DNA of 64,000 nt from Nemertoderma westbladi. Taxonomy: Eukaryota > Animalia > Xenacoelomorpha. The stretch is from positions 26,846-90,845 of the forward strand of contig JAUCBJ010003131.1 of assembly GCA_032718475.1 (NCBI GenBank). The letters are read 5' to 3'. Under the pieces are notes generated by a model, which ran no database searches, was not told where the DNA came from, and was given only the letters and a program-made list of their open reading frames with translations. The translations under genes and the position numbers were made by a program. Positions 2,381 to 58,175 of the stretch are shown in pieces. Every line of letters begins with the position of its first letter. Positions within the stretch are counted from its first letter, which is position 1.

Positions 2381-2479
2381 TATTTTAGGGAAACAGCCAC
2401 TAGTGCATATGCCGTTCCCCTCTACTCGTTTCCCTGGCTCTGTAGCCTTCCACTTGGCCGCATGGAACTATCTGCTCCG

Positions 2480-10482: not shown

Positions 10483-15743
<5,261 letters not shown>

Positions 15744-19125: not shown

Positions 19126-21638
19126 TTTGTCAATATTATTTGTATTTTTTATTGAAGTGCATCTTACTTGTGTGATATTTGATCAACAGTCCACGTCATA
19201 ATGTCACCCTTTATCACTGTCCTGATTAAATCAGTCCCTAATTATGACATATGAGTGCAATGCAAACAATATACGACTAGCTCACTCTTATCGCGATGAT
19301 GGATCTACTTCATATCGTTGTAATATTATTTACTTTTTTTATTTGTTATTTGAAACTGAAATGTTTAAACTCTATCATATTCCCATAGATTGGTTTTCCC
19401 GAGGCTTCGAAAACCCGTTACTGGGGATTTCGGTTGCATAACGGACATTTTTACAATTACAGTAGTAATGGAACTTAGTGACGGTGTGAGTTGTAAGCGG
19501 TAAAAGAGGCAACAAAAAATGTGAATAATATATCTTTATAATTAACAAGAAGCACAATTATCATATTAATAATCTGATAATAGTTAATATATATTACACA
19601 GCAGTAAATATTAAACAGAAATAAATATTAAACATTTAAACATATGTATTAAAAAGTTAATAATATGTAATAAACACCAATAAATATGTACCTAAATACA
19701 TATTCGATATCATCTAAAATGTCAGCCGAGAAGAAATCGATCGAACAACAATATTTATTTGGCGATATAATTTAGATCGTAAAATACCATTGATTTAATT
19801 GGTGTATAATAATAATTATAATTATAATTATTATTTTATTTTTATTTAATTACACAAGTATAAAAAAGTTCTAATCATAACGTGATTAAAGAGACAAAGA
19901 TTAGAAGTGTCGAATATAATTAAATATGCGCCGTTATTACCAATCGGAAATATTTTATCTTAATTAAGTATTAACTGTGATTATATAAGTTTTTAAAACA
20001 GTCTTACTCCATAATTAAATTACTTAAGACTATTAATATTAATAGCAAGAAGAACAATGAGTTAAACAGTGACACATTTGTGTTCAATCTACACGTACAA
20101 TAGTAGAATATATGAGTAGTAGAATATATGAGTAGTAGAATATATGAGTAGTAGAATATATGAGTAGTAGAATATATGAGTAGTAGAATATATGCAATAA
20201 TAGAATAGATATATAATAAAATAGATACAATAGTAGAATAGTACAATAGTACAATAGTAGAATATATAAAATAGTAGAATAGTACAATATATAAAATAGT
20301 AGAATATATAAAATAGTAGAATAGTACAATAGTAGAATATATAAAATAGTAGAATATATAAAATAGTAGAATAGTACAATAGTAGAATATATAAAATAGT
20401 AGAATAGTACAATAGTAGAATAGAACAATAGTATAATATATAAAATAGTAGAATAGTACAACAGTAGAATAGATACAATAGTAGAATACATACAATAGTA
20501 GAATAAATAAAATAGTAGAATAATACAATATTAGAATAGTACAACAGTAGAATAGTACAACAGTAGAATATATAAAATAGTAGAATAGTACAACAGTAGA
20601 ATAGATACAATGGTAGAATAGATACAATAGTAGAATAGTACAATAGTAGAATATATAAAATAGTAGAATAGTAGAATAGATACAATGGTAGAATATATAC
20701 AATAGTAGAATAGTACAATAGTAGAATATATAAAATAGTAGAATAGTACAATAGTAGAATATATAAAATAGTAGAATAGTAGAATAGAACAATAGTATAA
20801 TATATAAAATAGTAGAATAGTACAATATTAGAATAGTACAACGGTAGAATAGTACAACAGTAGAATATATAAAATAGTAGAGTAGTACAACAGTAGAATA
20901 GATACAATGGTAGAATAGTACAACAGTAGAATAGATACAATAGTAGAATAGATACAATAGTAGTATAGATACAATAGTATAATAAATAAAATAGTAGAAT
21001 AGTATAATAGTAGAATAGATACAATAGTAGAAGAAATAAAATAGTAGAATAGTACAATAGTAGAATATATAAAATAGTAGAATAATACAATATTAGAATA
21101 GTACAACAGTAGAATAGTACAACAGTAGAATATATAAAATAGTAGAATAGTACAACAGTAGAATAGATACAATAGTAGAATAGATACAATAGTATAATAA
21201 ATAAAATAGTAGAATAGTATAATAGTACAATAGTAGAATATATAAAATAGTAGAATAGTAGAATAGATACAATGGTAGAATAGATACAATAGTAGAATAG
21301 ATACAATAGTAGAATAAATAAAATAGTAGAATAGTATAATAGTACAATAGTAGAATATATAAAATAGTAGAATAGTACAATAGTAGAATAGATACAATGG
21401 TAGAATAGATACAATAGTAGAATAGTACAATAGTAGAATATATAAAATAGTAGAATAGTACAATAGTAGAATATATAAAATAGTAGAATATATAAAATAG
21501 TAGAATAGTACAATAGTAGAATATATAAAATAATAAAATAGTAGAATAGTACAAGAGTAGAATATATAAAATAGTAGAATAGTACAATAGTACAATATAT
21601 AAAATAGTAGAATAATAAAACAGTAGAATAGATACAAT

Positions 21639-21870
21639 AGTCAGTCAGTCAGTCGGCCGAGGCCGGAGGCGACCCGAAGGCTCCTCTTTCGATAGCTGCT
21701 ACCCGAGGGTAGGGATGGGCGCTACTCCTATCCATGATTTGCTCCCAGTAATTTAACTGGTACTCATTTTATCGACCCCAGTGGATGAAAGGCTGAGTGG
21801 AGCCTGGCGGGGCTGAACCTACAACCACTAGATTGCAGGCCCGGCGCTCAACCAACTGAGCTACCCCGAC
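21639..21870 (-). mobile_element. Full-length tRNA-head SINE (family A) with Deu/Nin-like core and (GACT)n tail, inserted in the satellite
   Basis: Minus strand: GGGGTAGCTCAGTTGG (A-box), GGTTCAGCCC (B-box), CTCAGCCTTTCATCC..GGTCGATAAAATGAGTACCAG core, tail GACTGACTGACT. Possible TSD atacaatagt. Confidence 0.85.
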
Positions 21871-24800
21871 GTACAATACAATAGTAGAATATATAAAATA
21901 GTAGAATAGTACAATCGTAGAATATATAAAACAGTAGAATAGTACAATAGTAGAATATATAAAATAGTAGAATAGTACAACAGTAGAATAGATACAATGG
22001 TAGAATAGTACAACAGTAGAATAGATACAATGGTAGAATAGTACAACAGTAGAATAGATACAATAGTAGAATAGATACAATGGTAGAATAGTACAACAGT
22101 AGAATAGATACAATAGTAGAATAGATACAATGGTAGAATAGATACAATGGTAGAATAGTACAACAGTATAATAGATACAATAGTAGAATAGATACAATGA
22201 TAGAATAGATACAATAGTAGAATAGTACAACAGTAGAATAGATACAATAGTAGAATAGATACAATGGTAGAAAAGTACAACAGCAGAATAGATACAATGA
22301 TAGAATAGATACAATGGTAGAATAGATACAATGGTAGAATAGATACAATGGTAGAATAGTACAACAGTAGAATAGATACAATAGTAGAATAGATACAATG
22401 GTAGAATAGATACAATGGTAGAATAGTACAACAGTAGAATAGATACAATAGTAGAATAGATACAATGATAGAATAGATACAATAGTAGAATAGATACAAT
22501 GATAGAATAGATACAATGGTAGAATAGATACAATGGTAGAATAGATACAATGGTAGAATAGTACAACAGTAGAATAGATACAATGGTAGAATAGTACAAC
22601 AGTATAATAGATACAATAGTAGAATAGATACAATGGTAGAATAGAAACAATGGTAGAATAGATACAATTGTAGAATAGTACAACAGTAGAATAGATACAA
22701 TAGTAGAATATATACAATGGTAGAATATATACAATGGTAGAATAGTACAACAGTAGAATAGATACAATAGTAGAATAGATACAATAGTAGAATAGATACA
22801 ATGATAGAATAGATACAATAGTAGAATAGATACAATGGTAGAATGGATACAATGGTAGAATAGTACAACAGTAGAATAGATACAATAGTAGAATAGATAC
22901 AATGGTAGAATATATACAATGGTAGAATAGTACAACAGTAGAATAGTACAACAGTAGAATAGATACAATGATAGAATAGATACAATAGTAGAATAGATAC
23001 AATAGTAGAATAGATAAAATAGTAGAATAGTAAAATAGTAGAATATATAAAATAGTAGGATAGTACAACAGTAGAATAGTACAATAGTAGAATATATAAA
23101 ATAGCGGAATAGTACAACAGTAGAATAGTACAATAGTAGAATAGTAAAATAGTAGAATATATAAAATAGTAGGATAGTACAACAGTAGAATAGTACAATA
23201 GTAGAATATATAAAATAGCGGAATAGTACAACAGTAGAATAGTACAATAGTAGAATATATAAAATAGTAGAATAGATACAATGGTAGAATAGATACAATG
23301 TTAGAATATATAAAATAGCGGAACAGTACAACAGTAGAATAGATACAATAGTAGAATAGATACAATGGTAGAATATATACAATGGTAGAATAGTACAACA
23401 GTAGAATAGATACAATGGTAGAATAAATACAATGGTAGAATAGATACAATGGTAGAATATATAAAATAGCGGAATAGTACAACAGTAGAATAGTACAATA
23501 GTAGAATATATAAAATAGTAGAATAGATACAATGGTAGAATAGATACAATGTTAGAATATATAAAATAGCGGAACAGTACAACAGTAGAATAGATACAAT
23601 AGTAGAATAGATACAATGGTAGAATATATACAATGGTAGAATAGTACAACAGTAGAATAGATACAATGGTAGAATAAATACAATGGTAGAATAGATAAAA
23701 TAGTAGAATATATAAAATAGTAGGATAGTACAACAGTAGAATAGTACAATAGTAGAATATATAAAATAGCGGAATAGTACAACAGTAGAATAGTACAATA
23801 GTAGAATATATAAAATAGTAGAATAGATACAATGGTAGAATAGATACAATGTTAGAATATATAAAATAGCGGAATAGTACAACAGTAGAATAGATACAAT
23901 AGTAGAATAGATACAATGGTAGAATAGTACAACAGTAGAATAGATACAATGGTAGAATAAATACAATGGTAGAATAGATACAATGGTAGAATATATAAAA
24001 TAGCGGAATAGTACAACAGTAGAATAGTACAATAGTAGAATATATAAAATAGTAGAATAGATACAATGGTAGAATAGATACAATGTTAGAATATATAAAA
24101 TAGCGGAACAGTACAACAGTAGAATAGATACAATAGTAGAATAGATACAATGGTAGAATATATACAATGGTAGAATAGTACAACAGTAGAATAGATACAA
24201 TGGTAGAATAAATACAATGGTAGAATAGATAAAATAGTAGAATAGTAAAATAGTAGAATATATAAAATAGTAGGATAGTACAACAGTAGAATAGTACAAT
24301 AGTAGAATATATAAAATAGCGGAATAGTACAACAGTAGAATAGTACAATAGTAGAATATATAAAATAGTAGAATAGATACAATGGTAGAATAGATACAAT
24401 GTTAGAATATATAAAATAGCGGAATAGTACAACAGTAGAATAGATACAATAGTAGAATAGATACAATGGTAGAATATATACAATGGTAGAATAGTACAAC
24501 AGTAGAATAGATAAAATAGTAGAATAGTAAAATAGTAGAATATATAAAATAGTAGGATAGTACAACAGTAGAATAGTACAATAGTAGAATATATAAAATA
24601 GTAGAATAGTACAACAGTAGAATAGATACAATAGTAGAATAGATACAATGGTAGAATAGATACAATGGTAGAATAGTACAACAGTAGAATAGATACAATA
24701 GTAGAATAGATACAATAGTAGAATAGATACAATGGTAGAATAGTAGAATAGATACAATAGTAGAATAGATACAATTATAGAATAGATACAATGGTAGAAT

Positions 24801-27800
24801 AGATACAATAGTAGACTAAATACAATAGTAGAATAGTACAACAGTAGAATAGATACAATAGTAGAATAGTACAACAGTAGAATAGATACAATGGTAGAAT
24901 AGATACAATAGTAGACTAAATACAATAGTAGAATAGTTCAACAGTAGAATATATACAATAGTAGAATAGTACAACAGTAGAATAGATACAATGGTAGAAT
25001 AAATACAATGGTAGAATAGTAGAATAGTAGAATAGATACAATAGTAGAATAGATACAATGATAGAATAGTACAACAGTAGAATAGATACAATAGTAGAAT
25101 AGATACAATGGTAGAATAGATACAATGGTAGAATAGTACAACAGTAGAATAGATACAATAGTAGAATAGATACAATAGTAGAATAGATACAATAGTATAA
25201 TAGATACAATGGTAGAATAGTAGAATAGATACAATAGTAGAATATATACAATGATAGAATAGATACAATGGTAGAATATATACAATGGTAGAATAGATAC
25301 AATTGTAGAATAGATACAATGGTAGAATAGTACAACCGTAGAATAGATACAATAGTAGAATAGATACAATGGTAGAATAGATACAATGGTAGAATAGTAC
25401 AACAGTAGAATAGATACAATAGTAGAATAGATACAATAGTAGAATAGATACAATGGTAGAATAGTAGAATAGATACAATAGTAGAATAGATACAATGATA
25501 GAATAGATACAATGGTAGAATAGATACAATAGTAGACTAAATACAATAGTAGAATAGTACAACAGTAGAATAGATACAATAGTAGAATAGTACAACAGTA
25601 GAATAGATACAATGGTAGAATAGATACAATAGTAGACTAAATACAATAGTAGAATAGTTCAACAGTAGAATATATACAATAGTAGAATAGTACAACAGTA
25701 GAATAGATACAATGGTAGAATAAATACAATGGTAGAATAGTAGAATAGATACAATAGTAGAATAGATACAATGATAGAATAGTACAACAGTAGAATAGAT
25801 ACAATAGTAGAATAGATACAATGGTAGAATAGATACAATGGTAGAATAGTACAACAGTAGAATAGATACAATAGTAGAATAGATACAATAGTAGAATAGA
25901 TACAATAGTAGAATAGATACAATGGTAGAATAGTAGAATAGTAGAATAGATACAATAGTAGAATATATACAATGATCGAATAGATACAATGGTAGAATAT
26001 ATACAATGGTAGAATAGATACAATTGTAGAATAGATACAATGGTAGAATAGTACAACAGTAGAATAGATACAATAGTAGAATAGATACAATGGTAGAATA
26101 GATACAATGGTAGAATAGTACAACAGTAGAATAGATACAATAGTAGAATAGATACAATGGTAGAATAGATACAATGGTAGATAGTACAACAGTAGAATAG
26201 ATACAATAGTAGACTAAATACAATAGTAGAATTGTACAACAGTAGAATAGATACAATAGTAGAATAGTACAACAGTAGAATAGATACAATGGTAGAATAG
26301 ATACAATAGTAGACTAAATACAATAGTAGAATAGTACAACAGTAGAATAGATACAATAGTAGAATAGTACAACAGCAGAATAGATACAATGGTAGAATAA
26401 ATACAATGGTAGAATAGAAACAATAGTAGACTAAATACAATAGTAGAATAGTACAACAGTAGAATAGATACAATAGTAGAATAGTACAACAGTAGAATAG
26501 ATACAATGGTAGAATAAATACAATGGTAGAATAGATACAATGGTAGAATAGTACAATGGCAGAATAGATACAATGGTAGAATAGATACAATGGTAGAATA
26601 GATACAATGGTAGAATAGATACAATGGTAGAATAGATACAATGGTAGAATAGATACAATGGTAGAATAGATACAATGGTAGAATAGATACAATGGTAGAA
26701 TAGATACAATGGTAAAATAGATACAATAGTAGAATAGATACAATGGTAGAATAGATACAATGGTAGAATAGATACAATGGTAGAATAGATACAATGGTAG
26801 AATAGATACAATGGTAGAATAGATACAATGGTAGAATAGATACAATAGTAGAATATATACAATGGTAGAATAGATACAATGGTAGAATAGTACAACAGTA
26901 GAATAGTACAACAGTAGAATAGATACAATAGTAGAATAGTACAATAGTAGAATAGATACAATGGTAGAATAAATACAATGGTAGAATAGATACAATGGTA
27001 GAATAGTACAACAGTAGAATAGATACAATGGTAGAATAAATACAATGGTAGAATAGATACAATGGTAGAATAGATACAATGGTAGAATAGTACAACAGTA
27101 GAATAGATACAATGGTAGAATAGATACAATAGTAGAATATATAAAATAGTAGAATAGTACAATAGTAGAATAGTACAACAGTAGAATAGATACAATAGTA
27201 GAATAGTACAACAGTAGAATAGATACAATGGCAGAATAGATACAATGATAGAATAGATACAATGGTAGAATAGATACAATAGTAGACTAAATACAATAGT
27301 AGAATAGTACAACAGTAGAATAGATACAATAGTAGAATAGATACAATGGTAGAATAGTACAACAGCAGAATAGATACAATAGTAGAATAGATACAATGGT
27401 AGAATAAATACAATGGTAGAATAGATACAATGGTAGAATAAATACAATGGTAGAATAGTACAGCAGTAGAATAGATACAATGGCAGACTAAATACAATAG
27501 TAGAATAGTACAACAGTAGAATAGATACAATAGTAGAATAGATACAATGATAGAATAGATACAATGGTAGAATAGATACAATAGTAGACTAAATACAATA
27601 GTATAATAGTACAACAGTAGAATAGATACAATAGTAGAATAGATACAATGGTAGAATAGATACAATGGTAGAATAGTACAACAGTAGAATAGATACAATA
27701 GTAGAATAGATACAATGATAGAATAGATACAATAGTAGAATAGTACAACAGTAGAATAGATACAATGGTAGAATAAATACAATGGTAGAATAGATACAAT

Positions 27801-30800
27801 GGTAGAATAGATACAATGGTAGAATAGATACAATGGTAGAATAGTACAACAGTAGAATAGATACAATAGTAGAATAGATACAATGGTAGAATAGATACAA
27901 TGGTAGAATAGTACAACAGTAGAATAGATACAATGGCAGAATAGATACAATGGTAGAATAGTACAACAGTAGAATATATACAATAGTAGTATAGATACAA
28001 TGATAGAATAGATACAATGGTAGAATAGATACAATAGTAGACTAAATACAATAGTAGAATAGATACAATAGTAGAATAGATACAATAGTAGAATAGATAC
28101 AATGGTAGAATAGATACAATGGTAGAATATTACAACAGTAGAATAGATACAATGGTAGAATAAATACAATAGTAGAATAGATACAATGGTAGAATAGATA
28201 CAATGGTAGAATAGTACAACAGTAGAATAGATACAATAGTAGAATAGATACAATGATAGAATAGATACAATGGTAGAATAGATACAATGGTAGAATAGTA
28301 CAACAGTAGAATAGATACAATAGTAGAATAGATACAATGATAGAATAGATACAATGGTAGAATAGATACAATAGTAGACTAAATACAATAGTAGAATAGA
28401 TACAATAGTAGAATAGATACAATAGTAGAATAGATACAATGGTAGAATAGATACAATGGTAGAATAGATACAATGGTAGAATAGATACAAAGGTAGAATA
28501 GATACAATGGTAGAATAGTACAACAGTAGAATAGATACAATGGTAGAATAAATACAATGGTAGAATAGATACAATGGTAGAATAGATACAATGGCAGAAT
28601 AGATACAATGGTAGAATAGTACAACAGTAGAATAGATACAATAGTAGAATAGATACAATGATAGAATAGATACAATAGTAGAATAGTACAGCAGTAGAAT
28701 AGATACAATGGTAGAATAAATACAATGGTAGAATAGATACAATGGTAGAATAGATACAATGGTAGAATAGATACATTAGTAGAATAGATACAATGGTAGA
28801 ATAGTACAATAGTAGAATATATAAAATAGTAGAATAGTACAATAGTAGAATAGAACAATAGTATAATATATAAAATAGTAGAATAGTACAATAGTAGAAT
28901 AGTAGAATAGAACAATAGTATAATATATAAAATAGTAGAATAGATACAATAGTAGAATAGATACAATGGTAGAATAGATACAATGGTAGAATAGATACAA
29001 TAGTAGAATAGTACAGCAGTAGAATAGATACAATGGTAGAATAAATACAATGGTAGAATAGATACAATGGTAGAATAGATACAATGGTAGAATAGATACA
29101 TTAGTAGAATAGATACAATGGTAGAATAGTACAATAGTAGAATATATAAAATAGTAGAATAGTACAATAGTAGAATAGAACAATAGTATAATATATAAAA
29201 TAGTAGAATAGTACAATAGTAGAATAGTAGAATAGAACAATAGTATAATATATAAAATAGTAGAATAGATACAATAGTAGAATAGATACAATGGTAGAAT
29301 AGATACAATGGTAGAATAGATACAATAGTAGAATAGTACAGCAGTAGAATAGATACAATGGTAGAATAAATACAATGGTAGAATAGATACAATGGTAGAA
29401 TAGATACAATGGTAGAATAGATACATTAGTAGAATAGATACAATGGTAGAATAGTACAATAGTAGAATATATAAAATAGTAGAATAGTACAATAGTAGAA
29501 TAGAACAATAGTATAATATATAAAATAGTAGAATAGTACAATAGTAGAATAGTAGAATAGAACAATAGTATAATATATAAAATAGTAGAATAGATACAAT
29601 AGTAGAATAGATACAATGGTAGAATAGATACAATGGTAGAATAGTACAACAGTAGAATAGATACAATGGTAGAATAAATACAATGGTAGAATAGATACAA
29701 TGGTAGAATAGATACAATGGCAGAATAGATACAATGGTAGAATAGTACAACAGTAGAATAGATACAATAGTAGAATAGATACAATGATAGAATAGATACA
29801 ATAGTAGAATAGTACAACAGTAGAATAGATACAATGGTAGAATAAATACAATGGTAGAATAGATACAATGGTAGAATAGATACAATAGTAGAATAGATAC
29901 AATGGTAGAATAGTACAACAGTAGAATATATACAATGGTAGAATAAATACAATAGTAGAATAGATACAATGGTAGAATAGATACAATGGTAGAATAGTAC
30001 AACAGTAGAATAGATACAATAGTAGAATAGATACAATGATAGAATAGATACAATGGTAGAATAGATACAATGGTAGAATAGTACAACAGTAGAATAGATA
30101 CAATAGTAGAATAGATACAATGATAGAATAGATACAATGGTAGAATAGATACAATGGCAGAATAGATACAATGGTAGAATAGTACAACAGTAGAATAGAT
30201 ACAATAGTAGAATAGATACAATGATAGAATAGATACAATGGTAGAATAGATACAATAGTAGACTAAATACAATAGTAGAATAGTACAACAGTAGAATAGA
30301 TAACAATAGTAGAATAGATACAATGGTAGAATATATACAATGGTAGAATAGTACAACAGTAGAATAGATACAATAGTAGAATAGTACAACAGTAGAATAT
30401 ATACAATAGTATAATAGATACAATAGTAGAATAGATACAATGGTAGAATAGATACAATGGTAGAATAGTACAATAGTAGAATAGATACAATGGTAGAATA
30501 GTACAATAGTAGAATATATAAAATAGTAGAATAGTACAAAAGTAGAATAGATACAATAGTAGAATAGATGCAATAGTAGAATAGATACAATAGTAGAATA
30601 GATACAATGGTAGAATAGTACAATAGAGAATAGTACAATAGTAGAATAGTACAATAGTAGAATATATAAAATAGTAGAATAGTACAAAAGTAGAATAGAT
30701 ACAATAGTAGAATAGATGCAATAGTAGAATAGATACAATAGTAGAATAGATACAATGGTAGAATAGTAGAATAGTACAATAGTAGAATAGATACAATAGT

Positions 30801-31939
30801 AGAATATATAAAATAGTAGAATAGTACAATAGTAGAATATATAAAATAGTAGAATAGTACAACAGTAGAATAGATACAATAGTAGAATAAATACAATGGT
30901 AGAATAGTAGAATATATAAAATAGTAGAATAGATACAATGGTAGAATAGATACAATGGTAGAATAGATACAATGGTAGAATAGATACAATGGTAGAATAG
31001 TACAACAGTAGAATAGATACAATAGTAGAATAGATACAATGATAGAATAGATACAATGGTAGAATAAATACAATAGTAGAACAGATACAATGGTAGAACA
31101 GATACAATGGTAGAATAGTACAATAGTAGAATATATAAAATAGTAGAATAGTACAACAGTAGAATAGATACAATAGTAGAATAGATACAATAGTACAATA
31201 GTAGAATATATAAAATAGTAGAATAGTACAACAGTAGAATAGATACAATAGTAGAATAGATACAATGGTAGAATAGTAGAATATATAAAATAGTAGAATA
31301 GATACAATGGTAGAATAGATACAATGGTAGAATAGATACAATGGTAGAATAGTACAACAGTAGAATAGATACAATAGTAGAATAGATACAATGGCAGAAT
31401 AGATACAATGGCAGAATAGATAAAATAGTAGAATAGATACAATAGTAGAATAGATACAATGGTAGAATAGTAGAATATATAAAATAGTAGAATAGATACA
31501 ATGGAAGAATAGATACAATGGTAGAATAGATACAATGGTAGAATAGTACAACTGTAGAATAGATACAATAGTAGAATAGATACAATGATAGAATAGATAC
31601 AATGGTAGAATAAATACAATAGTAGAACAGATACAATGGTAGAATAGATACAATGGTAGAATAGTACAATAGTAGAATATATAAAATAGTAGAATAGTAC
31701 AACAGTAGAATAGATACAATAGTAGAATAGATACAATAGTAGAATATATCAAATAGTAGAATAGTACAACAGTAGAATAGATACAATAGTAGAATAGATA
31801 CAATGGTAGAATAGTAGAATATATAAAATAGTAGAATAGATACAATGGTAGAATAGATACAATGGTAGAATAGTACAACAGTAGAATAGATACAATAGTA
31901 GAATAGATACAATGGCAGAATAGATACAATGGTAGAATA

Positions 31940-32383
31940 ATGGGAGTCCATGCTGGACTCTAACTGCTGAGGACACCAAATCTCTGGATGGCACATTCAC
32001 AAGAATGCTACGCCGGGTTCATTGTGTCAAGTACAATGCACACATCTCCAACCAGACACTATATAACATTGGAGGTGTCTCATTGGTTCCCCCAAGCTTG
32101 ACACTAGAACAAAATCGCCTCCGCTTTGCAGGACATTGCTTTCGCCGTGAGGACCAGCCAGTGCATAATCTTGTACTTTGGCAGCCTCATGGAGTGAATA
32201 AGCATGGTGGACAGCCCATGACTTTCTTGAGACGCATCTTAAAGGACACTGGCCTTGAAGATGCGGATGATCTAGCAAATGTCATGGGTGATAGGGAGTT
32301 GTGGCGGTGCAATTTTGTCGATAAGCCGGCACAGCATTCATAAAAATGCAGCTGCAATGCAGCATGCCGATCCTAGTAGTAGT
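31940..32383 (+). mobile_element. 5'-truncated RTE-like LINE 3' end
   Basis: Frame reads GSPCWTLT..LDGTFTRMLRR..RLRFAGHCFRR..LVLWQP..MGDRELWR (typical RTE C-terminus). (TAG)n tail. 11-bp TSD atggtagaata at 31929-31939 and 32384-32394. Confidence 0.85.
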
Positions 32384-32463
32384 ATGGTAGAATATATAAA
32401 ATAGTACAATAGTAGAATAGATACAATAGTAGAATGGATACAATGACAGATAAGTTTCAACTT

Positions 32464-32649
32464 TTAAAGTTGATTCATTCTGAGCAGCTGTTGACTGATC
32501 ATTCGTGAGTTATTTTCCAAAACATCAATCAAATCCTCTACTCGACTCACAATGACAACTCTTTCTATTTCTCGAATCAACGTATTGGGTGAAGGAACAT
32601 AAGAGATTGGCGCATGAACGGTTTCTAAGGGAACTCCTGCTGCGGGACC
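32464..32649 (-). CDS. Host gene, coding exon 4 (terminal) of predicted secreted helical protein
   Basis: Acceptor ttttttatgctcaatccag. The phase-0 frame is open: GPAAGVPLETVHAPISYVPSPNTLIREIERVVIVSRVEDLIDVLENNSRMISQQLLRMNQL*. Not in the ORF track. Linkage to the upstream exons is inferred. Confidence 0.7.
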   Translation of the reverse strand, partial: GPAAGVPLETVHAPISYVPSPNTLIREIERVVIVSRVEDLIDVLENNSRMISQQLLRMNQL

Positions 32650-32747
32650 CTGGATTGAGCATAAAAAATATTATAATTTAACAAATTTTAATATTTCTAA
32701 TTAGTTAGATTGTTACATTTGTAGAGTTATTGAAACCTTGAGCGATA

Positions 32748-32790
32748 AAGGCCATCCGTAATATATATTATTATATATTACGATGGCCTT
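32748..32790. other. Near-perfect DNA hairpin/palindrome
   Basis: aaggccatc-c-gtaatatata-ttat-tatatattac-gatggcctt (19-bp stem, one bulge). Confidence 0.85.
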
Positions 32791-32929
32791 CGCCTTCGTA
32801 TGATTCAATAATAGTTCAGTGAGGTGGCAAGTGGTCGTACCAAATTACTTTATTGGCAAACCAATAAGCAAGTGGCTTTATTTATTGCCATTAACAATGT
32901 GAGCCCCCATTTTTATCCACTGTGGGCGT

Positions 32930-33211
32930 TTAGTGTCGACGTGTGCACCATGCAATGTAAGTGTTTTGTGTTCATTTGTATCCAGTCTAGTGTCCACGTG
33001 TGCACCATGTAATGTGAGGGTTTTGTGTTCATTTGTATCCAGTCTAGTGTCCACGTGTGCACCATGCAATGTGAGTGTTTTGTATTTATTTGTATCCAGT
33101 CTATGGTCCACGTGTGCACCATGCAATGTGAGTGTTTTGTGTCCATTTGTATCCAGTCTAGTGTCCACGTGTGCACCATGCAATGTGAGTGTTTTGTGTC
33201 CATTTGTATCC
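32930..33211. repeat. 57-bp minisatellite, 5 copies
   Basis: Unit gtccacgtgtgcaccatgcaatgtgagtgttttgtgttcatttgtatccagtctagt. Confidence 0.95.
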
Positions 33212-33423
33212 TTAAAAAATACAAGCGCGATATCGCGCAAAGGTCCGCGTCTACTAACGCATGAACTGTCTCCTTGAACGTCTTACTACTAATCTTTCAA
33301 CAAAAAAACATTCACCGGAATGGGGGATTGAACTCGGTACCAATCCTGGGGCCGTATCAAACCCTAATACCAAAAGCTAGCGAGAAATTAACAACACCAA
33401 CAACACCAACAACACCAACAACA

Positions 33424-36400
33424 ACGGAATGAATGCTAGAGGTCTCGCTACGCGGACCTACTAACGGAGTAAATACTAGAGGTCTCGCTATGCGGACCTA
33501 CTAACGGAGTGAATACTAGAGGTCTCGCTACGCGGACCTACTAACGGAGTGAATACTAGAGGTCTCGCTACGCGGACCTACTAACGGAGTTAATACTAGA
33601 GGTCTCGCTACGCGGACCTACTAACGGAGTTAATACTAGAGGTCTCGCTACGCGGACCTACTAACGGAGTGAATACTAGAGGTCTCGCTACGCGGACCTA
33701 CTAACGGAGTGAATACTAGAGGTCTCGCTACGCGGACCTACTAACGGAGTGATTACTAGAGGTCTCGCTACGCGGACCTACTAACGGAGTGATTACTAGA
33801 GGTCTCGCTACGCGGACCTACTAACGGAGTGAATACTTTTTTTTTTTTTAAGTTACTAGTTTATTATATAATTTGCACAATATCAGCATAACTCTTTTAC
33901 AGGCACTTTATTAATAGAACAAAATGAATAATTCCTACACCGATACCGATAATAAAAAAAATAATAAATAAAGAAAGAAGGGCCTGTTTAGAGGCCTATG
34001 ACTACCACTGACAGTCAGTCTAGCCGGTGTTGGTATCAGCGTTAGTCAGGCGAATCGAGTCTGCGGACACCTGATGATAAACAGGGCGTTTGGTGGCGGA
34101 TCTCGCTCCACGGAGACACATCAAACTGGAGCGGAGAAGCGCGAAGCTTATCTTCCTCCGCGTCCAGCAGATACACTCAGAGTAGCTGAGGTCGCGACGA
34201 TCCGAGAGTTTAAGCGATAAACGCTTAACGAACTGTTGCATCGCTGGCGCAGTACCACCAAAGGCTGAAAGTATCAGAGGCACAAACGACGACAGTTCGA
34301 CCTCTCGGATGCGCTCCTCGTACTTCAGGCGTTTCCGCGCCTCGTGGTGGGAATAAGCGCCCTCGGTGGTCATGGCTGCGTTGGTGGCCGCTAGAGGGTT
34401 GTAGACCGAGACGTCGAAGTAAGTCTTCTCGAACCGGCCACCCCAGAACCCGCTGACAGAGACGTCCAACCTCGCCTGATCTTCTGTGGAGGTGGATCTG
34501 TGGGTGAACTCCTCACCTGTTAGAGGCTGGAGTGTTGGCTCTACTGCGACGTTGTGGGCTACTTCAGTTAGCGCGTCGGCAACGAAATCGCGTATCTCGT
34601 TGTGCCTTATCGAGGGATAACCCCCGGTGGGGCACGACAGGACGTGTGAAGGGGAAAATCGTTCCCCACAGACACAACGAGAAGGGAGCGACTTCGGTTG
34701 CCAGCCGTAGCGCAGACACAGAGCGTCGCGGAACTCTTCCTTAGACAGGTGAGTTTTGTGAAGGGTGACCGGTTTTGAGTTCAACCAAGCTGAAGCCCCC
34801 TTCTCCGACACCAGCTCCCTCAGATTCTGTTGGGACTCCGATAGCCGACCATGACATTCTGTTGTTTTGGTGAATACTAGAGGTCTCGCTACGCGGACCT
34901 ACTAACGGAGTGAATACTAGAGGTCTCGCTACGCGGACCTACTAACGGAGTGATTACTAGAGGTCTCGCTACGCGGACCTACTAACGGAGTGAATACTAG
35001 AGGTCTCGCTACGCGGACCTACTAACGGAGTGAATACTAGAGGTCTCGCTACGCGGACCTACTAACGGAGTGAATACTAGAGGTCTCGCTACGCGGACCT
35101 ACTAACAGAGTGAATACTAGAGGTCTCGCTACACGGACCTACTAACGGAGTGAATACTAGAGGTCTCGCTACGCGGACCTACTAACGGAGTGAATACTAG
35201 AGGTCTCGCTACGCGGACCTACTAACGGAGTGAATACTAGAGGTCTCGCTACGCGGACCTACTAACGGAGTGAATACTAGAGGTCTCGCTACGCGGACCT
35301 ACTAACGGAGTGAATACTAGAGGTCTCGCTACGCGGACCTACTAACGGAGTGAATACTAGAGGTCTCGCTACGTGGACCTACTAACGGAGTGAATACTAG
35401 AGGTCTCGCTACGCGGACCTACTAACGGAGTGAATACTAGAGGTCTCGCTACGCGGACCTACTAACGGAGTGAATACTAGAGGTCTCGCTACGCGGACCT
35501 ACTAACGGAGTGAATACTAGAGGTCTCGCTACGCGGACCTACTAACGGAGTGAATACTAGAGGTCTCGCTACGCGGACCTACTAACGGAGTGAATACTAG
35601 AGGTCTCGCTACGCGGACCTACTAACGGAGTGAATACTAGAGGTCTCGCTACGCGGACCTACTAACGGAGTGAATACTAGAGGTCTCGCTACGCGGACCT
35701 ACTAACGGAGTGAATACTAGAGGTCTCGCTACGCGGACCTACTAACGGAGTGAATACTAGAGGTCTCGCTACGCGGACCTACTAACGGAGTGAATACTAG
35801 AGGTCTCGCTACGTGGACCTACTAACGGAGTGAATACTAGAGGTCTCGCTACGCGGACCTACTAACGGAGTGAATACTAGAGGTCTCGCTACGCGGACCT
35901 ACTAACGGAGTGAATACTAGAGGTCTCGCTACGCGGACCTACTAACGGAGTGAATACTAGAGGTCTCGCTACGCGGACCTACTAACGGAGTCAAAGTCAC
36001 CTTTAGGTCTCGCTACGCGGACCTACTAACGGAGTGAATACTAGAGTTCTCGCTACGCGGACCTACTAACGGAGTGAATACTAGAGGTCTCGCTACGCGG
36101 ACCTACTAACGGAGTGAATACTAGAGGTCTCGCTACACGGACCTACTAACGGAGTGAATACTAGTGGTCTCGCTACGCGAACCTACTAACGGAGTGAATA
36201 CTAGAGGTCTCGTTACGTGGACCTACTAACGGAGTGAATACTAGAGCTCTCGCTACACGGACCTACTAACAGAGTGAATACTAGAAGTCTCGCTACACGG
36301 ACCTACTAACGGAGTGAATACTAGAGGTCTCGCTACACAGACCTACTAACGGAGTGAATACTAGAGGTCTCGCTACGGGGACCTAAAAACGGAGTGAATA

Positions 36401-36465
36401 CTAGAGGTCTCGCTACGCGGACCTACTAACGGAGTGAATACTAGAGGTCTCGCTACGCGGACCTA
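33424..36465. repeat. 40-bp minisatellite (~50 copies) interrupted by a LINE
   Basis: Unit tactagaggtctcgctacgcggacctactaacggagtgaa; preceded by an (aacaacacc)n microsatellite. Confidence 0.97.
33837..34869 (-). mobile_element. 5'-truncated RLE-type (CRE-like) non-LTR retrotransposon, second family
   Basis: ORF 34020-34811: CVCG..HVLSC, RHNEIRD, ARLDVS, FDVSV, KRLKY (CCHC + RLE). Poly(A) tail seen as a T-run at 33837-33849. TSD gtgaatac at 33829-33836 and 34870-34877. Confidence 0.88.
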
Positions 36466-37080
36466 ATAAGTTGCGTCTCTCATTTTTTCTCTGTACACTT
36501 TTTTCTGGCTTGTTGCTACCCAAATTAACCAATCACAGGCCTCTTGCCGGATATAACACATGAGTCGTATGCTAAAGATGGAACATGGGACATAATCACT
36601 TTCGACTCATGAGTCGTAATAAACGACTTATGACATACCACTGGATACGCTACCATTGAACCAATGTGTTCCATAATTTATTTCGACTTATGACATACGA
36701 ATTACGATTTACCAGTGGAGCACGAGCCTTAACAGTTTTACCGAGCATATTTCCAATTCAACTGAATTTCGATAAGAAAACATTAGATACCATGTTTGTG
36801 TGTCGGTAGGCCTATAGATCTGATTGTTCTACAATATTCCTAGCTCTCGTTTATTGCTTTGGATCCTTTTAATTCGCCTCATTAATCTGCTTAGTTTTAA
36901 TTAGATTAGATTGCTTAGATTAATCTGCATTAATCCGCTTGAGGCGTAGGTGGTGCAAGTGTCTGTGTTGGCATATGGCTGGATGTAGGTGTACCGCTTT
37001 CAACCACCACCCCCCCCCCCCCCCCCCCACCTGAATACTTTATTAGTCACTTAATAATAAAAACACTCTAAATCTGTATT

Positions 37081-37185
37081 AGCAAGCAAGAAGTCGGCCG
37101 AAGCTGGGGCAAACATAAAGGCTCCTCTTACCATAGCTCCTACCCGAGAAGGTGGCTCCAAGTAATTCAACTGATCCTCATTTAC
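37081..37185 (-). mobile_element. Degenerate 3' part of SINE family A
   Basis: agtcggccgaag..aaggctcctct..atagct..tacccgag..agtaatt.aactg..ctcattt aligns by eye with 21651-21770. Confidence 0.6.
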
Positions 37186-38664
37186 TCTATACTTGTATAT
37201 ATATATATATTAACGTTCATGTAGATCCATGTTTATTTGTTATTAATTTATATCAAAACCAAAAAAGACATTCAACGAAATTAAGAAAAAGTTTAGCAAT
37301 TCCGAATGCAACTTGATTACCAGTGATTTGATTTACAAATACGAGCTAATTAATGGGAGAATCTTTTAGGCTCGTTAAGCCTAGGAATGCCAAGGAAATA
37401 TGAGGTAATAATGTTTGTCCAACAGTAATATCCGGTACGCATCAGGTGTTCCCTGTGTGATATCCCCGTGGGCGTCAGATTCCCCATGGAGTGAGTTAGA
37501 AGATACTGAATGTCATTAAATCGCTAATTAATCATTTAGAATTCAGTAAATGAAGTAGTTACGTCAACACCGCCCACACATGCATCCTGCCATGTTACCC
37601 ACAATATTCATGAAAACTTGATCCACGTGGAACATAATGCGGACATTAAGTAACTTACAGTGAATAACATGTCGAACAACATTTATTAACAACAGCTGCG
37701 CCCTGCCCCTCTCAACGAAAAACTTAGGATTTAAATTACCTACAGTAAGTAATTAATTGGCTCTGCTAACCTCCACACTTTTTTCTCAATTTATTTGATA
37801 TGAAAGAATCTCACATTTTGGGGAATGGAATAATCTCACATGTATAAGGAAATGAAAAAACTCCACATTTAGGGAAAAGAAAAAATCTCACATTTAGGGA
37901 AATTCTCACAACTCGTAGTTAATTCCACTATCGGACCTACTGAACTACTTCCACAACAGATTGTATTATATTGCTGCAGATCTCTACGATCAACATTGTA
38001 TTCCAGAGCCATTGAACGGCATATTAGATGATTTGTTCACGAGTCATACTCTTCGTGAAAAGGATGTTAATTCACTGAGAATCTTTCCGTATCCCGACTT
38101 CCAAAAAATGACTTTGGACTTTTTCCAAAAAGTACGAGTCCTACATTATTTTTTAGAGATAAAGATACGCCTCAGGCGAGGCAAATTATAATATAACTAC
38201 GGTGAAATACACAGTATAGCACTGATTAAGATAAGGAGCACAATTATTATAATTATTTATTATAAATTAATTAATTTTTCTTCTTCTCTAATTTTTCTTC
38301 TTAATTAATTTATCTTTCTTTTGACTGTCACTTGAGGGAAGTACTGACAGAGGCGGGCAAGCGTCACCGTTTAAAAGGTTCACAGTATCGGTTGATCGCG
38401 GAACGTCTACAGAAGCGACAAATACATTCGGATGAGAAATCGTGGAAAGGTGAGTTATCGCAGCAGAGTTTGTGGTGAAAGCCGTGAACAGTCGTTCTCG
38501 TGATGATGTGACGGTTGCGTTGGTTCGAGGACTTCCAGAGTGTTGATCGGAACCTCGGGCCAGTTTGATAGTTGTCACTATGGAACTTGTTTTCTCTGTC
38601 TAATATGTAGAGTCCTACTATATTGTCTTCACTGGGATCTAAGATGTACTAGAAATGAAAGACT

Positions 38665-41600
38665 CTGTCCACAATCATAATCCTACCTATCTGTCCACAA
38701 TCATAATCCTACCTATCTGTCCACAGTGTATCATAATCCTACCTATATGTCCACAGTGTATCATAATCCTACCTATATGTCCACAGTGTATCATAATCCT
38801 ACCTATATGTCCACAGTGTATCATAATCCTACCTATCTGTCCACAATCATAATCCTACCTATCTGTCCACAGTGTATCATAATCCTACCTATATGTCCAC
38901 AGTGTATCATAATCCTACCTATATGTCCACAGTGTATCATAATCCTACCTATATGTCCACAGTGTATCATAATCCTACCTATCTGTCCACAATCATAATC
39001 CTACCTATCTGTCCACAGTGTATCATAATCCTACCTATATGTCCACAGTGTATCATAATCCTACCTATATGTCCACAGTGTATCATAATCCTACCTATCT
39101 GTCCACAATCATAATCCTACCTATATGTCCACAGTGTATCATAATCCTACCTATCTGTCTACAGTGTATCATAATCCTACCTATATGTCCACAGTGTATC
39201 ATAATCCTACCTATATGTCCACAGTGTATCATAATCCTACCTATCTGTCCACAATCATAATCCTACCTATATGTCCACAGTGTATCATAATCCTACCTAT
39301 CTGTCCACAATCATAATCCTACCTATCTGTCCACAATCATAATCCTACCTATCTGTCCACAGAGTATCATAATCCTACCTATATGTCCACAATCATAATC
39401 CTACCTATCTGTCCACAGAGTATCATAATCCTACCTATCTGTCCACAGTATATCATAATCCTACCTATCTGTCCACAATCATAATCCTACCTATATGTCC
39501 ACAGTGTATCATAATCCTACCTATCTGTCCACAGTGTATCATAATCCTACCTATCTGTCCACAGTGTATCATAATCCTACCTATCTGTCCACAATCATAA
39601 TCCTACCTATATGTCCACAGTGTATCATAATCCTACCTATCTGTCCACAGTGTATCATAATCCTACCTATCTGTCCACAGAGTATCATAATCCTACCTAT
39701 CTGTCCACAGTGTATCATAATCCTACCTATCTGTCCACAGTGTATCATAATCCTACCTATCTGTCCACAGAGTATCATAATCCTACCTATCTGTCCACAG
39801 TGTATCATAATCCTACCTATCTGTCCACAGTGTATCATAATCCTACCTATCTGTCCACAATCATAATCCTACCTATCTGTCCACAGAGTATCATAATCCT
39901 ACCTATCTGTCCACAATCATAATCCTACCTATATGTCCACAGTGTATCATAATCCTACCTATCTGTCCACAATCATAATCCTACCTATATGTCCACAGTG
40001 TATCATAATCCTACCTATCTGTCCACAATCATAATCCTACCTATCTGTCCACAGAGTATCATAATCCTACCTATCTGTCCACAATCATAATCCTACCTAT
40101 CTGTCCACAGAGTATCATAATCCTACCTATCTGTCCACAATCATAATCCTACCTATATGTCCACAGTGTATCATAATCCTACCTATCTGTCCACAATCAT
40201 AATCCTACCTATCTGTCCACAGAGTATCATAATCCTACCTGTCTGTCCACAGTGTATCATAATCCTACCTATATGTCCACAATCATAATCCTACCTATCT
40301 GTCCACAGAGTATCATAATCCTACCTGTCTGTCCACAGTGTATCATAATCCTACCTATATGTCCACAATCATAATCCTACCTATCTGTCCACAATCATAA
40401 TCCTACCTATCTGTCCACAGAGTATCATAATCCTACCTGTCTGTCCACAGTGTATCATAATCCTACCTATATGTCCACAATCATAATCCTACCTATCTGT
40501 CCACAGAGTATCATAATCCTACCTATCTGTCCACAATCATAATCCTACCTATCTGTCCACAGAGTATCATAATCCTACCTATCTGTCCACAGAGTATCAT
40601 AATCCTACCTATCTGTCCACAGTGTATCATAATCCTACCTATATGTCCACAATCATAATCCTACCTATCTGTCCACAGAGTATCATAATCCTACATGTCT
40701 GTCCACAGTGTATCATACTCCTACCTATATGTCCACAATCATAATCCTACCTGTCTGTCCACAGTGTATCATAATCCTACCTATATGTCCACAATCATAA
40801 TCCTACCTATCTGTCCACAGAGTATCATAATCCTACCTGTCTGTCCACAGTGTATCATAATCCTACCTATATGTCCACAATCATAATCCTACCTATCTGT
40901 CCACAATCATAATCCTACCTATCTGTCCACAGAGTATCATAATCCTACCTATCTGTCCACAGTGTATCATAATCCTACCTATATGTCCACAATCATAATC
41001 CTACCTATCTGTCCACAGAGTATCATAATCCTACCTATCTGTCCACAATCATAATCCTACCTATATGTCCACAGTGTATCATAATCCTACATATCTGTCC
41101 ACAATCATAATCCTACCTATCTGTCCACAGAGTATCATAATCCTACCTATCTGTCCACAATCATAATCCTACCTATCTGTCCACAGAGTATCATAATCCT
41201 ACCTATCTGTCCACAGAGTATCATAATCCTACCTATCTGTCCACAATCATAATCCTACCTATCTGTCCACAGAGTATCATAATCCTACCTATCTGTCCAC
41301 AGAGTATCATAATCCTACCTATCTGTCCACAATCATAATCCTACCTATATGTCCACAGTGTATCATAATCCTACCTATCTGTCCACAGTGTATCATAATC
41401 CTACCTATCTGTCCACAGAGTATCATAATCCTACCTGTCTGTCCACAGTGTATCATAATCCTACCTATATATCCACAATCATAATCCTACCTATCTGTCC
41501 ACAGAGTATCATAATCCTACCTATCTGTCCACAATCATAATCCTACCTATCTGTCCACAGAGTATCATAATCCTACCTATCTGTCCACAGAGTATCATAA

Positions 41601-42315
41601 TCCTACCTATCTGTCCACAGGTATCATAATCCTACCTATCTGTCCACAGAGTATCATAATCCTACCTATCTGCCCACAGTGTATCATAATCCTACCTATC
41701 TGTCCACAATCATAATCCTGCCTATCTGTCCACAGAGTATCATAATCCTACCTATCTGTCCACAATCATAATCCTACCTATCTGTCCACAATCATAATCC
41801 TACCTATCTGTCCACAGAGTATCATAATCCTACCTATCTGTCCACAATCATAATCCTGCCTATCTGTCCACAGAGTATCATAATCCTACCTATCTGTCCA
41901 CAATCATAATCCTACCTATCTGTCCACAATCATAATCCTACCTATCTGTCCACAGAGTATCATAATCCTACCTATCTGTCCACAATCATAATCCTACCTA
42001 TCTGTCCACAGAGTATCATAATCCTACCTATCTGTCCACAGAGTATCATAATCCTACCTATCTGCCCACAGTGTATCATAATCCTACCTATCTGTCCACA
42101 ATCATAATCCTACCTATCTGTCCACTATCATAATCCTACCTATCTGTCCACAGAGTATCATAATCCTACCTATGTGTCCACAGTGTATCATAATCCTACC
42201 TATCTGTCCACAATCATAATCCTACCTATATGTCCACAGTGTATCATAATCTTACCTATCTGTCCACAGAGTATCATAATCCTACCTAAATGTCCACAGT
42301 GTATCATAATCCTAT
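38665..42315. repeat. Minisatellite of interspersed 30-bp and 26-bp units (in intron 3 of the host gene)
   Basis: Units tcataatcctacctat(c/a)tgtccacag(t/a)gta and tcataatcctacctatctgtccacaa. Confidence 0.98.
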
Positions 42316-42369
42316 ATTTGTAATTTATCTCTCTACTTCCACATAATCACTGTAAAGAGTAAAACTTAC

Positions 42370-42549
42370 CGTACGCCTCAATGATGTAAGTAGCAAATCC
42401 AACCGCCCTGCAAGTTCAAGTAGATTTTCTCGTAAACCTAGGCGAATTAATGATTCAGCATCAAAACCCTCGATTAGATTAATAATCTTCATATATATGA
42501 CGATATCTCTGTACACGTATCGAATATACTGTCTCACAGCTAGTACTTT
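42370..42549 (-). CDS. Host gene, coding exon 3
   Basis: Acceptor cttgtattgcag, donor ACG|gtaagt; 180 nt, phase 0/0; KVLAVRQYIRYVYRDIVIYMKIINLIEGFDAESLIRLGLRENLLELAGRLDLLLTSLRRT. Confidence 0.8.
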
Positions 42550-43019
42550 CTGCAATACAAGTATAGAAATTGTAAATAAAACGTCTTGTTTAGTAAAATA
42601 GAATTATGAGAAAAAATAGAGGAACAATTGGGCAGAGATGGGCTGTATTGAACCGTTTCAGTTACTATCACGTTGACTTTCGTTTAGGTATAGACAGTTT
42701 GGAACCACTGTAATGGGATCCACAACTCTAATAATAAGGCTCTGGACATAATGACAATTTATCTCTCCAGAGGAAAATCGACGCAACTAACAGCTGATTG
42801 CTCTAACAAATCAATCTGTAACCTGTGTTATTAACTTTGTATATTGTTTTGGTTATAATAACGTGTCACTGTCACCTGCTCCTTTCCCTGAGATGTGATT
42901 TGCTTCCTATCACTCGGTCTTGATGCAATCTTTTATTTACTCTACCCAAAAAATTTATAAAAAAAAAATATATATATATATAAAAATATATTTAATTTAC
43001 CTATGGAAAAAATACAAAC

Positions 43020-43181
43020 CTGTGTATGAGAAATTCCAGTATCATTTAACAATGTGGCATTCATATTTGTCACATGAAGATGATCACCAGAATTGTCTGC
43101 GTGAAGAGAGTTTATTATTAAGTCCTCATCTAGAAACCTCTTACTATTCGCACCCGGAAATTGTAATTCATAATAATTTTC
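43020..43181 (-). CDS. Host gene, coding exon 2
   Basis: Acceptor atttttctgcag, donor CAG|gtttgt; 162 nt, phase 0/0; ENYYELQFPGANSKRFLDEDLIINSLHADNSGDHLHVTNMNATLLNDTGISHTQ. Confidence 0.78.
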
Positions 43182-43896
43182 CTGCAGAAAAATATTTAAA
43201 ATTATTTAGGAGCTAAAAATATTAAAGATTTGAAATCGAAGATCAAATTAAGCCTTTTTTATCATTTCAATATCTGAACATCGCATATCCAGGATTAAAC
43301 CTGGATTTTTTTTTACTTTACTTAACCTTCATTGTGTTCATTGTATTTTAGAATGCATATGCAGTATACATACAGGAACCAAGTGTCGCAAATGTGTCGT
43401 ACATCACAGCGACAATTAAAACGATTTTAATTTAAGCAAGATGGACGCTAATTTAGACAATGATGGACCTATCCTTTACCCGCTACATCGCCTAGCATAA
43501 GACGTATTTGTAAATCATTGCATATGCGTGATTAGACTGCCAGCAAACTAAATTATTAGCGTCGCATTTCCAAAATGTATTGTGTGACCGTTTTTTGTCA
43601 TGGCAGTGATTTTTTATATCCGTTTATTTGACTTTTTTTGTCCGCCTTTTTTTACGAATTGTGCATAATGACTTTTGTTGTCCCTTTAATGACTTTTGTT
43701 GTCCTTTAATGACTTTTTATGTATGTATTTCTTCAAACTGTCACCTGCTGATTTCTGAACTGTCAGACAGTTGATTTCAACATGCCTATGCCAAAACATT
43801 CAAAATTTGTTGATTTCTGGACTGTCAGACAGTTTAATTTACAATAATTGTGGCAAAACATTCAAAATTCCATGATTTATAGACTATGAGATGATT

Positions 43897-44360
43897 TAAC
43901 CAAAACAATAAACAGTCACTTTACTAAATGAAGGAAAGGAGCAGGTTACAGAGGCGGGCCTTTCTAACCAAAACAATAAACGGTCACTTTACCAAATCAG
44001 GGAAAGGAGCAGGTTAGAGAGGCGGAATTTTCTAACCAAAACAATAAACAGTCACTTTACCAAATGAAGGAAAGGAGCAGGTTACAGAGGCGGGCTTTCT
44101 AGGCAAAACAATAAGCGGTCACTTTACCAAATCAGGGAAATGAGCAGGTTACCGGGCGGGCTTTCTAACCGAAACAATAATAAACAATCACAATTACCAA
44201 TTGAGGGAAAGAAGCAGGTTACAGAAGCGGGTGTTTCTAACCAAAACAATAAACTATCACTTTAGCAATTGGGGAAAGGAGCAGGTTACAGAAACGGAAT
44301 TTTCTAACCAAAACATAAAACAATAAACGATACCAATTTACCAATTGAGGAAAAGGAGCA
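43897..44360. repeat. ~68-bp degenerate tandem repeat (~7 copies); related copies at ~56118-56310
   Basis: Unit aaccaaaacaataaac.gtcactttaccaaat..gg.aaaggagcaggttacagaggcggg..tttct. Confidence 0.85.
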
Positions 44361-45055
44361 TTTTATGGCGGCATTATTTGACATTATGTACAGTTGTATA
44401 TCCTTATTGGGACAACCTCTTTGCTTTTTAGCTAAACCGGCCCGATATTTTCGATATCAGTGTGTTTTCGCTATCAAATGAGGAATAAGTACTGTAGATT
44501 TTTCGAACACATTGTATGTGGACCGATCTGTTAGTTTAGAACTACATTATAGATTTAGAGGTACAACTACAGCTACCCATAACATTCAAGTTGTCATGAT
44601 CCATTTTAAATGCATTATCCAGATATGTATCAATTATCTAAAATTTATTAATTATTTAAAAGGTAGCGCGGTCAGCCGGTACTAAAATTCTGAAATAAGT
44701 TTATTAATTACCATCATTCTCTCATTTACAACTGTTTAGGCTACATATCAGAGTACCGGTATCAGTATCTATTGTACAGTAGCTGAGTAGATATATATTA
44801 TAACCTATTATAATGCTATATAATTCTTTCTAAGGCATAGGCTTTATACCTACATACAATTCAGCAATACTGCAAAATACTGCTAGGTAGATTTCTGGAG
44901 GACATTAAAAAAAAGAGGACATTATGAGTGATTTAAACGCACAAGAAAAATTATTGCGTTTTGTCATTATAATTAATAACCGGTATATATACCCTATTAC
45001 CAATCAATAGTCAATAGTCATTCGCTACAGTTACAGAAATGTTTCCAAGACTTAC

Positions 45056-45214
45056 CAAGTCTTCAACTATTGGTTTCAAAAATCTGCGCAGATCGGAGGA
45101 TTGCGCCTCTATTAGAGCGAATTCTCTTGACAACCCGCTGATATTAGGAAATGTAACTGATTGGGCCATGCAGGCACCCAGACAGAAGATGCAGACAATG
45201 TACATAGAAGTCAT
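45056..45214 (-). CDS. Host gene, coding exon 1 (signal peptide and first helix); the exon begins at 45234
   Basis: Acceptor tttacag at 45235, ATG at 45214, donor TTG|gtaagt. Reads MTSMYIVCIFCLGACMAQSVTFPNISGLSREFALIEAQSSDLRRFLKPIVEDL, with a hydrophobic N-terminus and a plausible CMA|QS cleavage. Confidence 0.8.
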
Positions 45215-45778
45215 TGCCACAACAGAGAGTCTACCTGTAAATAGTTATTATAAATATAGGAGAATTTAAAACCAAATTACAAATAAAAATATATTTTAAA
45301 AATATTCAGGGACAAGGTCCAAGAACGCATAAGTTAAACCTAATAATCTACAATGGTGAAAAAATGCTATCAAACAATTTATTATTTTTATTTTATTTCT
45401 ATGAACATGTCTCGTCATACAGGGAACTCAATCTACACTAATAAATAGGCGGACAAATGTAATAAATTGCTGCTACTGCACTGATATAGTTGATATAACG
45501 GTTGAGAATTACTCACTAACACTTCAATAACTGTCATTTAACCCTATAAGTTGGCAATAAAATGCCCCATTATAATTTGCTTCTCAGATTAAACAAAATT
45601 TAATATAATAATATGGAGCACAATTGTGATTCTAGCACCAGTAACTGCGGGATGGAGTGGATTAATGGAGTGGAGAAATGTAAACCAATTAAGCAATATG
45701 GATTGATAATAAACTCTAATTCACATACCGAGTCCCGCTTTACATTCCAATCGTGATAGGCCAGATCCTTTTATTAAA

Positions 45779-58139: not shown

Positions 58140-58175
58140 TTATAATTATTAATAATATATAAACTTTATTTTGAA

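Follow-up and report, generated by a model that had tools for sequence, protein, structure and literature searches.

A probable spliced gene for a putative long-chain helical cytokine in a repeat-rich contig of Nemertoderma westbladi

A stretch of 64,000 nucleotides (nt) from Nemertoderma westbladi (Xenacoelomorpha; assembly GCA_032718475.1, contig JAUCBJ010003131.1, positions 26,846 to 90,845 of the forward strand), hereafter the window, contains four minus-strand exons that together encode a protein of 228 residues, and that very probably constitute a real, spliced and unannotated gene. Judging from exon-level structure models and from the exon layout, we moderately favour the interpretation that the predicted product is a class I four-helix cytokine of the long-chain type (IL-6/IL-11/G-CSF-like), and we put it forward, more tentatively, as a candidate JAK/STAT ligand. 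An earlier note, made from the letters of this DNA alone, had proposed the same interpretation. The spliced gene, the N-terminal segment, the order of the helices and the exon plan hold up in our analysis, while a match to a cytokine family was not obtained and the topology is deduced only.

The coordinates, the canonical AG/GT sites and the translation reported in the earlier note were reproduced exactly, with the exons joined in phase 0/0/0 into 228 codons (Table 1). The length of every exon is divisible by 3, the acceptors all end in CAG, the donors of exons 1-3 read GTAAGT, GTTTGT and GTAAGT, respectively, and the introns measure 1,874, 470 and 9,720 nt. The 20 nt preceding the ATG are indeed open in frame and begin at a phase-1 acceptor (rank 50 of 1,965), so that an upstream exon probably exists. 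IL-6, G-CSF and GH genes share the intron phases 1-0-0-0. Six of the 24 upstream donors are associated with an in-frame ATG, none of them convincing as a tiny first coding exon. The two best upstream donors on the minus strand (57563 and 52638) are strong, carry no in-frame ATG and are candidates for the ends of non-coding 5' exons.

The signal-peptide-like character of the N-terminus was supported by a hydropathy profile (19-residue window) with a single hydrophobic segment, peaking at 1.84 over residues 4-22; the best later window reaches 1.07, which leaves the protein without a transmembrane segment. On this basis the product is predicted to be probably secreted, with a presumptive signal cleavage site near residue 17. 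Also as described previously, there are four N-glycosylation sequons (residues 24, 94, 99 and 213) and no cysteines in the mature chain, the only Cys residues being 8, 11 and 15. Leucine accounts for 33 of the 228 residues, and the mature chain is acidic (isoelectric point 5.4). AlphaFold2 was run in single-sequence mode on exon 3 and on exon 4, each folded alone. The exon 3 model (pLDDT 81) comprises helix B (109-133, 25 residues), a short helix (138-143) and helix C (146-166, 21 residues), and the exon 4 model (pLDDT 86) a 20-residue Pro-rich coil followed by the 40-residue helix D (188-227). Helix B is unusually hydrophobic, and the hydrophobic patterns of helices C and D may resemble those of IL-11 and G-CSF. 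High values of the helical moment occur over residues 29-62 (up to 0.64 at 41-58) and return in exons 3 and 4; on the propensity scale it is low (0.05-0.25) in the exon 2 region, residues 57-110. Thus, in the succession of helix, long loop, helix, short loop, helix, Pro-rich loop and helix that had been proposed, the last three helices are now modelled exon by exon, and helix A, like the AB loop, is drawn from the helical moment. The connectors comprise about 50 residues between helices A and B (propensity scale), 12 with the short helix between B and C, and about 20-21, as coil, between C and D, i.e. the combination of long AB and CD crossovers with a short BC connector that characterizes long-chain class I cytokines. 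We further infer a helix A, a non-helical AB crossover, helices in up-up-down-down order and, as in IL-11, a core free of disulfides.

The exon structure agrees with this picture. In the class I plan derived from IL-2 genes, four exons are separated by three phase-0 introns, and encode the signal and helix A (exon 1), the AB loop (exon 2), helices B and C (exon 3), and the CD loop and helix D (exon 4) (PMC6070626). All three introns of the candidate gene are of phase 0 and fall at the module boundaries of this plan, in line with the previously suggested likeness to the phase-0 introns of class I cytokines. In total length and in the sizes of its helices the predicted protein agrees with the long-chain class.

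Table 1. Parts of the candidate gene, in positions of the window (UTR, untranslated region)
Feature	Position	Strand	Content
5' segment, 20 nt in front of the ATG, following the upstream acceptor with 45234 as first exon base	45215..45234	-	open frame, phase 1; 5' UTR or N-terminal extension
Coding exon 1, 159 nt, residues 1-53	45056..45214	-	signal-peptide-like stretch (about 1-17), then the larger part of the putative helix A
Coding exon 2, 162 nt, residues 54-107	43020..43181	-	last part of helix A, then a long loop of low helical moment (putative AB crossover); two N-glycosylation sequons
Coding exon 3, 180 nt, residues 108-167	42370..42549	-	predicted helix B, short helix, helix C
Intron 3, 9,720 nt	32650..42369	-	6,134 nt of tandem arrays; 7,004 nt (72%) repeats once the retroelement fragment is added
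Coding exon 4, 186 nt with stop, residues 168-228	32464..32649	-	Pro-rich coil (inferred CD crossover) and long helix D
Possible rest of the 3' UTR past the 12-kb satellite (speculative)	19835..20094	-	AT-rich; ATTTA motifs (20020, 19925); first AATAAA, 19840

We find it hardly credible that stop-free stretches flanked by splice-like signals line up here by chance. Using generic splice weights, we ranked the splice sites among the non-repeat minus-strand sites of the window: the donors occupy ranks 17, 46 and 4 among 2,056 GT sites and the acceptors ranks 6, 24 and 8 among 1,965. Their scores (2.7-6.5) fall within the span given by the sites of a neighboring Dmrt gene, for which the same weights yield 0.7, 4.9 and 9.5. 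When both strands of the unique DNA (23,432 bases) were scanned for symmetric open exons of 50-100 codons, only exons 2 and 3 passed the thresholds and nothing did on the plus strand, and at least two such exons appeared in 1 of 200 local dinucleotide shuffles, a significance that is overstated, because the thresholds were set post hoc so that the observed exons would pass. These fitted thresholds and the generic splice weights are what speaks for chance. Terminal-type matches in the unique DNA were confined to exon 4 and a read-through of exon 2. Independently of the splice sites, base usage is asymmetric by codon position (chi2 24.8 versus a null mean of 9.9), to a degree that about 1% of a set of 3,000 random open reading frames (ORFs) free of stops attained (P about 0.01); the test is not sensitive, as the two shorter Dmrt exons score just 8.3, below passing. 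The GC content of each exon exceeds that of both its flanks, and the models of exons 3 and 4 are confident amphipathic helices, which likewise argues against chance. That the exons are real and the gene model is wrong or dead (exon 4 foreign, an exon missing, or the gene silenced by repeat insertions near the stop codon and upstream) is also rather improbable. The 9.7-kb length of the last intron would fit such a scenario, as would a tandem array of 4.4 kb that lies upstream of exon 1 at a distance of 550 nt and the retroelement fragment and 12-kb satellite right after the stop codon: the satellite-like stretch begins only 19 nt past it, and no poly(A) signal was found nearby, the first AATAAA outside repeats lying 12,623 nt downstream. 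On the other hand, the four exons are intact, with 0 in-frame stops in each versus 2-8 in each alternative sense frame; 72% of intron 3 consists of repeats; and of the 33 acceptors lying between exon 3 and the start of Dmrt, that of exon 4 is the best, and only one other opens a longer in-frame run, antisense within a retroelement and with a weak score.

Besides the adjacent satellite and the distant poly(A) signal, several points weigh against a class I cytokine. AB-loop exons of the IL-6 family encode about 30-40 residues, and exon 2 is longer (54 residues); the 0/0/0 phase is weak evidence by itself, because phase-0 introns are the commonest kind. The topology is deduced from loop lengths, as exons 3 and 4 were folded singly, and the models back the layout rather than a family, because lone amphipathic peptides readily model as helices and there is nothing specific in the shape of a helical hairpin. 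There is no paralogue within the 64-kb window. Homology searches, all with single exons as queries (36-79 residues), yielded 346 candidates in one case and 39 in another, none of which reached E<=10, and in a larger search 0 of 1.84 billion at E<=0.001. No exon matched Pfam at E<=0.1 (IL-6, IL-11, LIF/OSM, GH/PRL, G-CSF and Unpaired included), nor PDB sequences, in searches for which pieces of 36-61 residues have little power throughout. An exon of the neighboring Dmrt gene was likewise blank in the word search, which suggests that the lineage is poorly covered or that short queries are underpowered; therefore the blanks of the candidate show neither novelty nor absence. Moreover, cytokine families are described as not recognizable by ordinary sequence methods (PMC4063663), so that the absence of matches is the expected outcome. 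This absence, together with the long exon 2 and the hydrophobicity of helix B, which would suit any buried helix, agrees with a secreted helical bundle that is no cytokine (a lipid-binding, matrix or gland protein) and in which exon 2 would be structural and the helices up-down. We regard this as a plausible if unlikely explanation: an up-down bundle has no need of long-short-long connectors (about 50, 12 and 21 residues), the three introns all lie at class I module boundaries, and the four-helix fold with long loops in up-up-down-down order is described in PMC11339341 as confined to helical cytokines. According to the same source, class II cytokines have helices in place of the class I long loops. 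A class II cytokine (interferon/IL-10-like) with fused last exons would be reminiscent of lamprey Ifn2 and Ifn3, with four exons in phase 0-0-0, and interferons (IFNs) have about 200 residues and a signal peptide (bioRxiv 10.64898/2026.05.30.728932). We consider this very improbable, since in the model of exon 4, folded in isolation, the CD connector is a Pro-rich coil and a single helix follows instead of two, whereas class II proteins have 5-6 helices with helical crossovers; in addition, that preprint reports no IFN fold among the non-chordate proteomes screened. We moderately favour a protein that works like a class I cytokine, and assign it to no named family.

If this reading is correct, the product would be secreted and glycosylated, would fold as a disulfide-free long-chain four-helix bundle, and would bring together receptor chains of the gp130/Domeless type, leading to activation of JAK and STAT. 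It is conceivable, though we say so with reserve, that the gene is the founding member of a lineage-specific IL-6/IL-11-type family in a non-insect invertebrate, encoding a ligand of a gp130/Domeless-type receptor and retaining the vertebrate exon-to-helix plan. According to a survey published in 2026 (PMC13203501), many invertebrates possess IL6R, JAK and STAT, yet most of them yielded no IL-6-like ligand, with the exception of insect Upd. Were our prediction true, it would supply a further lineage with a ligand for testing, support the idea that such ligands have been missed because of fast divergence (which defeats BLAST) and short exons in repeat-rich DNA, and place the gene for long-chain cytokines, and the positions of its introns, in the bilaterian ancestor or earlier. 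Its value is tempered by the fact that the fold and the expression of this sequence-based candidate are unproven.

The window is repeat-rich animal DNA, with 29,500 of 64,000 bases in masked tandem arrays, and the long ORFs in it are those of retroelements and of a tyrosine-recombinase-like gene. The Dmrt gene (minus strand) has an exon at 9325-9192 that matches the Pfam DM domain (E 2.4e-16) and continues in the exon 5114-4933. An intron of phase 2 interrupts the DM domain, and compared with DMRT1 and Doublesex one residue is inserted; later exons were not found in the window. DM-domain genes are animal-specific, and this one, which shares the strand of the candidate and lies 23 kb downstream of it, can serve as a synteny marker. 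An intact non-LTR retroelement ORF of 1,282 codons (10988-14836, plus strand), which we take to be CRE/NeSL-like, encodes an N-terminal Ulp1-type protease (E 1.7e-15) and a reverse transcriptase (E 2.8e-14). A relative of it (25% identity over 201 residues, E 4.6e-8) lies in intron 3 (33423-36469, minus strand): 5'-truncated, with a poly(A) tail, it is inserted (about 34870-33835) in a 40-bp tandem array with an apparent 7-8-bp target duplication, and is possibly a satellite-targeting element. An intronless ORF of 1,023 codons with an in-frame 42-bp tandem array (58146-61217, plus strand) has a weak tyrosine-recombinase match (Pfam Phage_integrase, E 0.0097, below the cut-off; no match in NCBIfam) and may be a Crypton-like element or belong to a larger mobile one. 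The fragmented element at 83-3378 (minus strand), with gag-, reverse transcriptase- and integrase-like pieces, is presumably Gypsy-like. The 12-kb satellite (20095-32444, 17-bp unit) is broken by a LINE-like fragment (31936-32343), and a dispersed family of repeats with a unit of ~68 bp and 70-80% identity occurs in intron 1 (43897-44319), in intron 2 (42837-42891) and upstream of the gene (56099-56311).

Among known systems, insect Unpaired proteins (Upd1-3) are the known invertebrate ligands of Domeless/JAK/STAT (PMC13203501), but we found no sequence shared with them. The intron-containing interferons of lamprey and lancelet, discovered by a screen for exon phase and signal peptide (bioRxiv 10.64898/2026.05.30.728932), resemble the candidate in the four-exon 0-0-0 layout, present in lamprey, and differ in that their crossovers are helical and their helices number five. 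Short-chain class I cytokines (IL-2 type) share the four coding exons, the three phase-0 introns and the assignment of exons to helices; however, salmonid IL-2 has 135-147 residues and an exon 2 of 36-48 nt (PMC6070626), in contrast to 228 residues, 162 nt and helices of 21-40 residues in the candidate. From the gp130/IL-6 group (IL-6, IL-11, G-CSF, LIF/CNTF) the candidate is set apart by the lack of detectable sequence similarity, the longer AB exon, the acidic mature chain, the failure to find a tiny first coding exon (an ATG in good context lies within the helix-A exon), and the absence of an FxxK site-III motif at the start of helix D. The likenesses to this group include a length of about 200-230 residues, a signal peptide (predicted here) and phase-0 exons for helix A, the AB loop, helices B and C, and the CD loop with helix D. 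In halibut, IL-6 has 226 residues and five exons and IL-11b, rich in Leu and Pro, has 201, while the first intron of IL-11 lies 7 nt after the ATG, i.e. in phase 1, and mammalian IL-11 contains no cysteines (PMC3271213). The candidate parallels IL-11 in the phase 1 of its upstream acceptor, and mammalian IL-11 in its Leu-rich mature chain free of cysteines.
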